Positions 63,821 to 64,000 of a stretch of 64,000 bases of DNA are shown piece after piece; within the stretch, counting starts at the first letter, position 1; every line of letters starts with the position of its first letter. This DNA comes from Escherichia coli (GTDB lineage Bacteria; Pseudomonadota; Gammaproteobacteria; Enterobacterales; Enterobacteriaceae). Both the position numbers and the translations under genes were made by a program. The stretch lies in NCBI RefSeq assembly GCF_003334255.1, contig NZ_QOWU01000005.1; one strand, 5' to 3'. The notes below the pieces were generated by a model, which was given only the letters and a program-made list of their open reading frames with translations, was not told the origin of the DNA and made no database searches.

Positions 63821-64000
63821 TCACCAGCTACACAGTATATACACACTGACGCTGACAGTAGTCAGCAGGACCACAATAATCAGTGCCAGCAGTATGGTAA
63901 CGATACGGTCTGTATTCCGGTAATAGCCGAAGGGGTCGACAGAACCACAATACGGGCAACACACTGTATTATGAGTAATCGCGTTTCCACAGTCCCTGCA
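63821..64000 (-). CDS. Partial ORF (start beyond window): small Cys-rich protein with zinc-ribbon-like CxxC...CPYC motif and C-terminal TM segment
   Basis: Reverse-strand translation ...CRDCGNAITHNTVCCPYCGSVDPFGYYRNTDRIVTILLALIIVVLLTTVSVSVYILCSW* runs to the window edge; not in the ORF track because it has no start in the window. Confidence 0.3.
   Translation of the reverse strand, partial: CRDCGNAITHNTVCCPYCGSVDPFGYYRNTDRIVTILLALIIVVLLTTVSVSVYILCSW

Follow-up and report, generated by a model that had tools for sequence, protein, structure and literature searches.

The described proteins closest to the one considered here are those named for DUF2116 (PF09889-type, about 65–80 aa), which come from enterobacteria and mobile elements. 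They share with it the arrangement C-x2-C-G-x10-C-x2-C, often a DPFG..R..DR linker, and one hydrophobic helix. By phmmer they are found at E values of 1e-5 to 1e-3 against our 66-aa protein, whose gene lies at the end of a 64,000-nucleotide stretch of Escherichia coli DNA (hereafter the window). However, several DUF2116-type relatives carry a tail of 10–15 residues, whereas the window protein stops right after the helix. Generic prokaryotic zinc ribbons (Zn_ribbon_3, Zn_Ribbon_1, DZR) likewise combine two CxxC knuckles with a short beta-hairpin, but those that have been characterised are mostly soluble, in contrast to the window protein with its predicted membrane helix, and a match to a generic zinc-ribbon domain says nothing about function.

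Two further groups invite comparison. ElaB/YqjD/YgaM, DjlC and Flk, C-tail-anchored inner-membrane proteins of E. coli, have a topology like the one predicted here: they are made without a signal peptide, and their N-terminal domain stays in the cytoplasm, held by a single transmembrane helix at the very C-terminus. They lack a zinc ribbon, however, and have no sequence similarity to the 66-aa protein. The TIGR04104 cxxc_20_cxxc proteins also join paired CxxC motifs to a hydrophobic segment and align weakly with residues 17–60. Nevertheless, the window protein scores 11.1 bits against a curated cutoff of 45, and the spacing between its CxxC motifs is 10 residues rather than about 20.

No counterpart was found in the fetched CP4-57, CP4-6 and CP4-44 stretches of E. 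coli K-12 MG1655, where tblastn of four alleles gave nothing better than E 0.4. This search therefore gave no K-12 gene name and no K-12 literature to transfer. Literature searches on WP_001297900.1 or its peptide, on YagK/YfjJ and on tail-anchored zinc ribbons returned no relevant paper. RefSeq, UniProt and the annotations of thousands of genomes already list its product, either as hypothetical or as "zinc-ribbon domain-containing".

A gene cut by the window edge

An earlier note on this DNA had claimed that the minus strand carries, up to the window edge, part of a gene for a small Cys-rich, membrane-anchored protein, with CxxC...CPYC followed by a hydrophobic C-terminal helix. Both the translation and the complete coding sequences of related strains agree with it. 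The minus-strand translation of 63821–64000 is CRDCGNAITHNTVCCPYCGSVDPFGYYRNTDRIVTILLALIIVVLLTTVSVSVYILCSW, free of stops until the terminal TGA, and it reads C-x2-C, 10 residues, C-P-Y-C and then a hydrophobic C-terminus, where the 19-residue Kyte-Doolittle mean peaks at 2.99 (residues 40–58). The same gene is annotated as a 201-nt CDS on the minus strand in strains LS45 (locus L001, 8522–8722) and DY612 (locus L002, 34785–34985). Its complete 66-aa product is MVIRKKKCRDCGNAITHNTVCCPYCGSVDPFGYYRNTDRIVTILLALIIVVLLTTVSVSVYILCSW, listed in RefSeq as WP_001297900.1, "hypothetical protein".

The window thus holds the 3' 90% of a 66-codon gene. The seven missing codons (MVIRKKK), including the ATG, were read from LS45 and DY612; together with an AGGAGG Shine-Dalgarno sequence they occupy nucleotides 1–35 past the window end. 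The start codon had been placed beyond 64 kb by the earlier note, and indeed the ATG lies 21 nt past the window, with AGGAGG 5 nt 5' of it and GTG as the codon directly after it. An in-frame stop just beyond the edge with no start codon would have spoken against a gene; in both strains the extended frame reaches the ATG first, and an in-frame stop follows only 8 codons above it. These strains are close guides to the window. Its last 701 bases have matches in 3231 E. coli records, with LS45 99.9% identical, and its last 20 kb show 99.7% identity to DY612 and others. The small gene is absent from the open reading frame list because frames that run off the sequence end are not listed, and only an internal GTG-started piece of 47 aa (63821–63964) appears there. 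The missing frame is thus a boundary artefact, in which the window edge cuts a real gene. The features of the gene within the window are given in Table 1.

Table 1. Features of the small gene and of its predicted product, in window coordinates.
Feature	Position	Strand	Basis
Codons 8–66 and stop of the 66-codon gene	63821..64000	-	Annotated CDS in relatives; coding signature
Stop codon TGA	63821..63823	-	Translation
Predicted four-cysteine zinc-ribbon core, C8-x2-C11-G12-x9-C22-x2-C25	63947..64000	-	Conservation; AF2; weak profile matches
Juxtamembrane linker, D29-P-F-G-Y-Y-R-N-T-D-R39, basic and aromatic	63905..63937	-	Allele conservation; AF2
Predicted C-terminal transmembrane helix, I40-W66	63824..63904	-	Hydropathy; AF2

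Comparison of five DNA alleles from E. coli and Salmonella (L002, L004, L013, L015 and L017) revealed a coding signature that is strongest in the N-terminal part. By the Nei-Gojobori method, dN/dS was 0.15–0.72 for the whole gene, 0.03–0.34 for codons 1–38 and 0.2–1.6 for the helix half. Variable columns in codons 1–39 were distributed 6/4/20 over codon positions 1/2/3 (chi-square 15.2, 2 d.f., p about 5e-4), and the frame of the small gene is the sole frame open in all five diverged alleles. An antisense frame of 58 aa at 63747–63923 (+) was considered as a real gene and rejected, as it is broken in three of the five. Alleles down to about 60% identity are known from E. coli, Shigella, Klebsiella and Salmonella, and the 90% cluster of the 66-aa protein has 566 member sequences. 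Across 23 aligned variants the Cys residues hardly vary, nor does G32-Y-Y-R-x-T-D38, and the helix differs in sequence yet remains hydrophobic. Such a pattern is expected of a gene that is translated and whose product is under tight constraint in its N-terminal domain and under loose constraint in its membrane anchor. The dN/dS values above 1 in some helix comparisons could also mean that the C-terminal half is unconstrained as a specific interface.

The two halves of the gene have evolved at very unequal rates (helix-coding 63824–63904 versus 63905–64000, both on the minus strand). In divergent E. coli copies, blastn covers only query positions 1–142, which comprise the upstream region and the zinc-ribbon codons; beyond them the helix-coding part can no longer be recognised. 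This inequality suggests either mosaic evolution or relaxed constraint on the anchor. The start codon varies as well. In two allele groups, P0040 (L004, 2267–2464) and P0044 (L013, 10001–10198), ATC replaces the ATG of the window type, and the second codon is GTT in the former and the original GTG in the latter. To judge from this codon, these copies may be poorly translated or becoming pseudogenes. Many database variants of the small protein are frameshifted or truncated. Given the ATC starts and the many broken variants, selection is therefore not uniformly strong.

The broken variants bear on a further explanation, in which the gene is a non-functional or untranslated remnant hitch-hiking in a widespread island. 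We regard this as very improbable. The surrounding island is heavily decayed: it has no integrase, its hha is a pseudogene, AAA-ATPase genes survive as fragments and IS elements have inserted. This decay would fit a remnant, as would the truncated and frameshifted variants and the absence of a consensus sigma-70 promoter in a simple scan of the gene's own strand, in which neither promoters nor terminators exceeded chance; but a remnant would not explain third-position bias and low zinc-ribbon dN/dS across alleles that are 20–40% diverged, nor the four Cys ligands retained in distant relatives. The perfect AGGAGG Shine-Dalgarno and ATG also argue against it, as does the exact 66-aa sequence, present on more than 1000 contigs and in 54,279 blocks of the indexed collection. 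By eye, a weak putative promoter, TTGAAT-17-TAATGT, can be picked out in the conserved upstream region. Taking these results together, 63821–64000 (-) belongs to a complete 66-codon gene under purifying selection, whose product probably consists of a cytoplasmic C4 zinc ribbon and a C-terminal membrane helix.

DNA matching the small gene is present in 3494 of the 5426 complete E. coli genomes (about 64%), a count that includes divergent matches covering only the upstream and zinc-ribbon-coding part. The median is two places per genome and the maximum six, with about 6400 places in all, almost all of them chromosomal. Eight plasmid records carry the gene, five of which are 0.8–4.9 Mb long and probably derived from chromosomes, and a single phage record does, an unannotated one of 4.5 kb. 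Phage and true plasmid records thus essentially lack the gene, which is atypical for either kind of element.

Predicted architecture and distant relatives

Among 18 relatives, near and distant, the residues C8, C11, G12, C22, C25 and P30 never vary. From this invariance the zinc ligands are predicted to be C8, C11, C22 and C25, with C21, which is retained in the enterobacterial alleles only, as an extra cysteine. In the linker, G32, Y33, Y34, R35, T37 and D38 are nearly invariant among alleles, and the DPFG..R..DR motif is seen again in distant relatives; from about residue 33 onward the linker is helical in the AF2 model. An AF2 model based on the 18-sequence alignment (mean pLDDT 87) places strands at residues 5–7 and 14–16 and a helix at 33–65, with pLDDT of 95 over residues 41–60 and 81–87 at the zinc-ribbon strands. 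Sequence and model agree in giving the hallmarks of a C4 zinc ribbon, namely two CxxC knuckles flanked by strands and four invariant cysteines.

Residues 40–66 form the single hydrophobic segment of the protein. Only 2–3 residues follow the helix, a count that leaves no extracytoplasmic domain, and the N-terminal 39 residues contain 7 K+R versus 3 D+E. The predicted features are thus those of a tail-anchored protein: a lone C-terminal helix, no N-terminal signal sequence and a positive N-terminus. A tail-anchored inner-membrane protein with its zinc ribbon facing the cytoplasm is strongly predicted on the basis of the positive-inside rule.

Profile searches with the full-length product found no Pfam, NCBIfam or PADLOC model at threshold. 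The best Pfam match of the 66-aa protein was zf-ChsH2 (i-E 0.014), the zinc-ribbon families PF13248, PF13240, PF12773 and PF10571 were sub-threshold (i-E 0.014–0.09), and DUF2116 (PF09889) gave i-E 1.8, which is no match. The best NCBIfam score was 16.4 bits against a cutoff of 32. PADLOC-DB 2.0 returned no defence component, its sole match being a Cas12f zinc-finger stretch (E 0.25). PHROGs gave families of unknown function only (best phrog_38187, E 1.5e-5). When the PDB was searched with the family profile, the matches were generic zinc ribbons only, those of reverse gyrase, L40e, L32 and RpoP. Among 18 relatives, a few pass E <= 0.001 with generic models (5 with PF13248, 4 with PF13240, 3 with the DZR model PF12773) and 3 do so with PF09889.

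Wider searches point in the same direction. Against 1.84 billion cluster representatives, phmmer found 76 proteins at E <= 0.001, and the relatives beyond the enterobacterial alleles are 55–80 aa long with the same layout as the 66-aa protein. Several distant ones read C-x-D-C-G-x10-C-x2-C-(G/S)-S-x-DPFG-x2-R-x2-DR followed by a hydrophobic helix. A structure search of BFVD and AFDB50 gave no match at E <= 0.001. The best AFDB50 neighbours are 73–76-aa proteins of Salmonella, Klebsiella and E. coli labelled "DUF2116 family Zn-ribbon" (E 2e-3 to 2e-2, with 33–38% identity for those at E 2e-3 to 9e-3; query-normalised TM-score 0.63–0.75); the remaining BFVD and AFDB50 matches have E >= 0.05. By these searches the small protein falls within a loosely defined group of uncharacterised proteins of small size that join a zinc ribbon to a helix.

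Some weak structural matches (E >= 0.1) align over ribbon and helix and bear a further named domain: "Host cell surface-exposed lipoprotein" (BFVD), tRNA_anti-like (BFVD and AFDB50) or DUF4352 (AFDB50). They are no more than compatible with a ribbon-helix module that would serve as a reusable anchor.

One distant relative, P0113 (78 aa; L020, 6001–6237, plus strand), lies in a region resembling the transfer region of a conjugative plasmid. Its neighbours are genes for NikA-like, ParA-like, PLD nuclease, DotM_C, thioredoxin-like and exclusion-determining proteins. The P0113 gene overlaps an opposite-strand call of 148 aa by about 120 nt, and one of the two calls may be wrong.

Island neighbourhood

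The window runs along the E. coli chromosome from the O-antigen/his region, via yeeA and tmaR, into an island at the CP4-44 position. In DY612 the island begins with yeeW, cbtA, cbeA, yeeT, yeeS, an antirestriction gene and a DUF932 gene, continues with patatin, RdcB-family and dynamin-family genes, a YeeP-like GTPase gene, a 383-aa gene and remnants, and then reaches a 200-aa gene, an AlpA-like HTH gene and, after a 1.1-kb gap, the 66-aa gene. Past the latter lie a divergent inovirus-Gp2/YagK-YfjJ gene, two overlapping Zn_ribbon_11/DUF7828 genes, and IS remnants and cargo up to cobU. The local order is the same in every allele examined, including those of Salmonella: two Zn_ribbon_11 genes and a YagK-like gene, then the small gene in divergent orientation, followed by hha, which converges with it, alpA and a gene of 190–200 aa. 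The small gene is part of a conserved module of CP4-44/Ag43-type islands in E. coli and Salmonella.

The overlapping Zn_ribbon_11/DUF7828 genes (L002, 36013–36809, plus strand) lie past the window and encode soluble proteins of 133 and 135 aa with several CxxC pairs. This pair always follows the YagK-like gene in islands that hold the small gene, and K-12 yagK and yfjJ are without both the pair and the small gene. Paralogy between the small protein and the two downstream zinc-ribbon proteins was considered and rejected, since those are soluble proteins of 133–135 aa from the Zn_ribbon_11/DUF7828 family.

The 199 bp that separate the small gene from the divergent YagK-like gene (L002, 34986–35184) lie just past the window end. 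This intergenic region is 93% identical across five alleles and thus better conserved than the helix-coding half of the small gene. It contains an invariant inverted repeat, CCGTATG-GTT-CATACGG, near the YagK-like start codon, which by its sequence may be an operator or a 5'-UTR hairpin.

On the other side, the 1.1-kb gap between the small gene and alpA contains an hha-like gene (hemolysin expression modulator family; window 63425–63565, plus strand) that converges with the small gene and has decayed through a frameshift and an in-frame stop. In related islands hha is intact and lies some 330 nt downstream of the small gene (L025, 20554–20766; L013, 10530–10754, 74 aa).

The conservation of alpA and hha genes 0.3–1.5 kb from the small gene raises the question of a membrane regulator of the anti-sigma or sequestration type, whose zinc domain would hold a transcription factor (e.g., AlpA-like or Hha-like) until a signal arrives. 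Membrane-bound ZAS anti-sigma factors bind zinc in a cytoplasmic domain that precedes a transmembrane helix, and this is also the predicted layout of the small protein. However, the ZAS signature H-x3-C-x2-C is absent: the protein has H17-x3-C21 directly before C22-x2-C25, and in the wider family both H17 and C21 are replaceable. AF2 gives a beta-ribbon and not the helical ZAS fold, the neighbourhood examined contains no sigma factor gene, and the 2–3 residues after the helix leave no extracytoplasmic sensor domain. Moreover, hha is a decayed pseudogene in the window while the small gene is intact. Such a regulator is thus a highly unlikely reading.

The placement of the small gene on the integrase-proximal side of the island, also claimed by the earlier note, does not hold literally, as the window has no integrase or tRNA gene between 40 and 64 kb. 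Neither was found in DY612 in the 13 kb from the small gene to cobU, nor within 10–20 kb on that side of the other alleles examined. MIN11 has one integrase fragment only, which lies beside cadC at the other end of the island, the cbtA end. K-12 CP4-57 is arranged intA-yfjH-alpA-yfjI-yfjJ, with the integrase on the alpA/yfjJ side, and only by analogy with that island is an integrase-proximal placement reasonable.

Two other parts of the island deserve mention. Window positions 51890–57074 (-) contain a trio of genes for a dynamin-family protein (798 aa), an RdcB/YjcZ-family protein (301 aa) and a patatin-like phospholipase (356 aa). The trio occupies the position of flu (Ag43) in K-12 CP4-44, and MIN11 has both Ag43 and the trio. 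It resembles the chromosomal rdcA-rdcB pair, of which it would be an accessory paralogue that has gained a lipase. Further on, about 59400–61800, the window has no long open reading frame; close relatives have AAA ATPase pseudogene fragments there. This segment has been a repeated target of insertion sequences (IS100 in DY612, IS150 in LS45, IS621/IS110-type and IS66-type elements in others), and the window is without IS100.

Possible roles of the small protein

As a tentative proposal, the 66-aa protein might serve as a membrane tether or adaptor. Its zinc ribbon would bind a cytoplasmic partner, nucleic acid or protein, at the inner face of the membrane, and its fast-evolving helix would be mainly an anchor or an oligomerisation element. 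Candidate partners would come from the island itself, namely the two soluble Zn_ribbon_11 proteins and the product of the divergent YagK/YfjJ Rep-like gene. This is the simplest reading because ribbon and linker are constrained, the helix is free to vary and there is no extracytoplasmic domain.

A membrane-active effector is a different kind of explanation, and one that we consider unlikely. The island would then carry it as a small hydrophobic toxin, as a peptide for abortive infection or superinfection exclusion, or as an inhibitor of cell division. Its helix would perturb the inner membrane or a membrane protein, and its zinc ribbon would act as a sensor or regulatory handle. Small single-helix membrane proteins of prophages and islands are often toxins or exclusion factors, and the helix of the small protein is very hydrophobic, but the conserved part is the zinc ribbon with its linker and not the helix, which is the opposite of what a toxic helix would lead one to expect. 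Weak or non-ATG starts and frequent frameshifted variants would fit a product needed at a low level. There is no conserved adjacent candidate antitoxin, however, and no Rfam antisense or type I antitoxin RNA at E <= 1 in the 4 kb around the gene, a search that covers described families only; a conserved soluble zinc ribbon would also be atypical for type I toxins.

The wider relatives and the neighbours of the gene bear on the effector reading as well. The surroundings of three distant relatives were inspected: the first is flanked by conjugative-plasmid genes, the second adjoins an SSB gene and the third has uncharacterised neighbours. The first two settings would suit an effector. So would two phage proteins in BFVD that align weakly over the query (E 0.18 and 1.2) and carry the "Host cell surface-exposed lipoprotein" label, which is presumably linked to superinfection exclusion. 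On the other hand, neither the small protein nor its neighbours (the YagK-like protein, the two Zn_ribbon_11 proteins and the 200-aa protein) have a PADLOC match in support of such a role, save weak AlpA-type HTH matches among the neighbours.

One further reading can be imagined, although we give it only a slim chance. The small protein would be the membrane-anchoring part of an undescribed four-gene unit, together with the YagK/YfjJ Rep-like gene and the two Zn_ribbon_11/DUF7828 genes. If this were true, the unit, which is conserved in the Ag43-type islands examined from E. coli and Salmonella, could for example tether the excised island to the membrane and replicate or mobilise it there, or it could be a new defence or exclusion system. 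As far as its sequence goes, the small gene is an ordinary one that suggests no unusual mechanism. Accessory islands of E. coli encode many small membrane proteins that are uncharacterised, and the 66-aa protein is one of them. Its role, if worked out, would help explain the very common module of YagK/YfjJ and zinc-ribbon genes in CP4-44/CP4-57-like islands.
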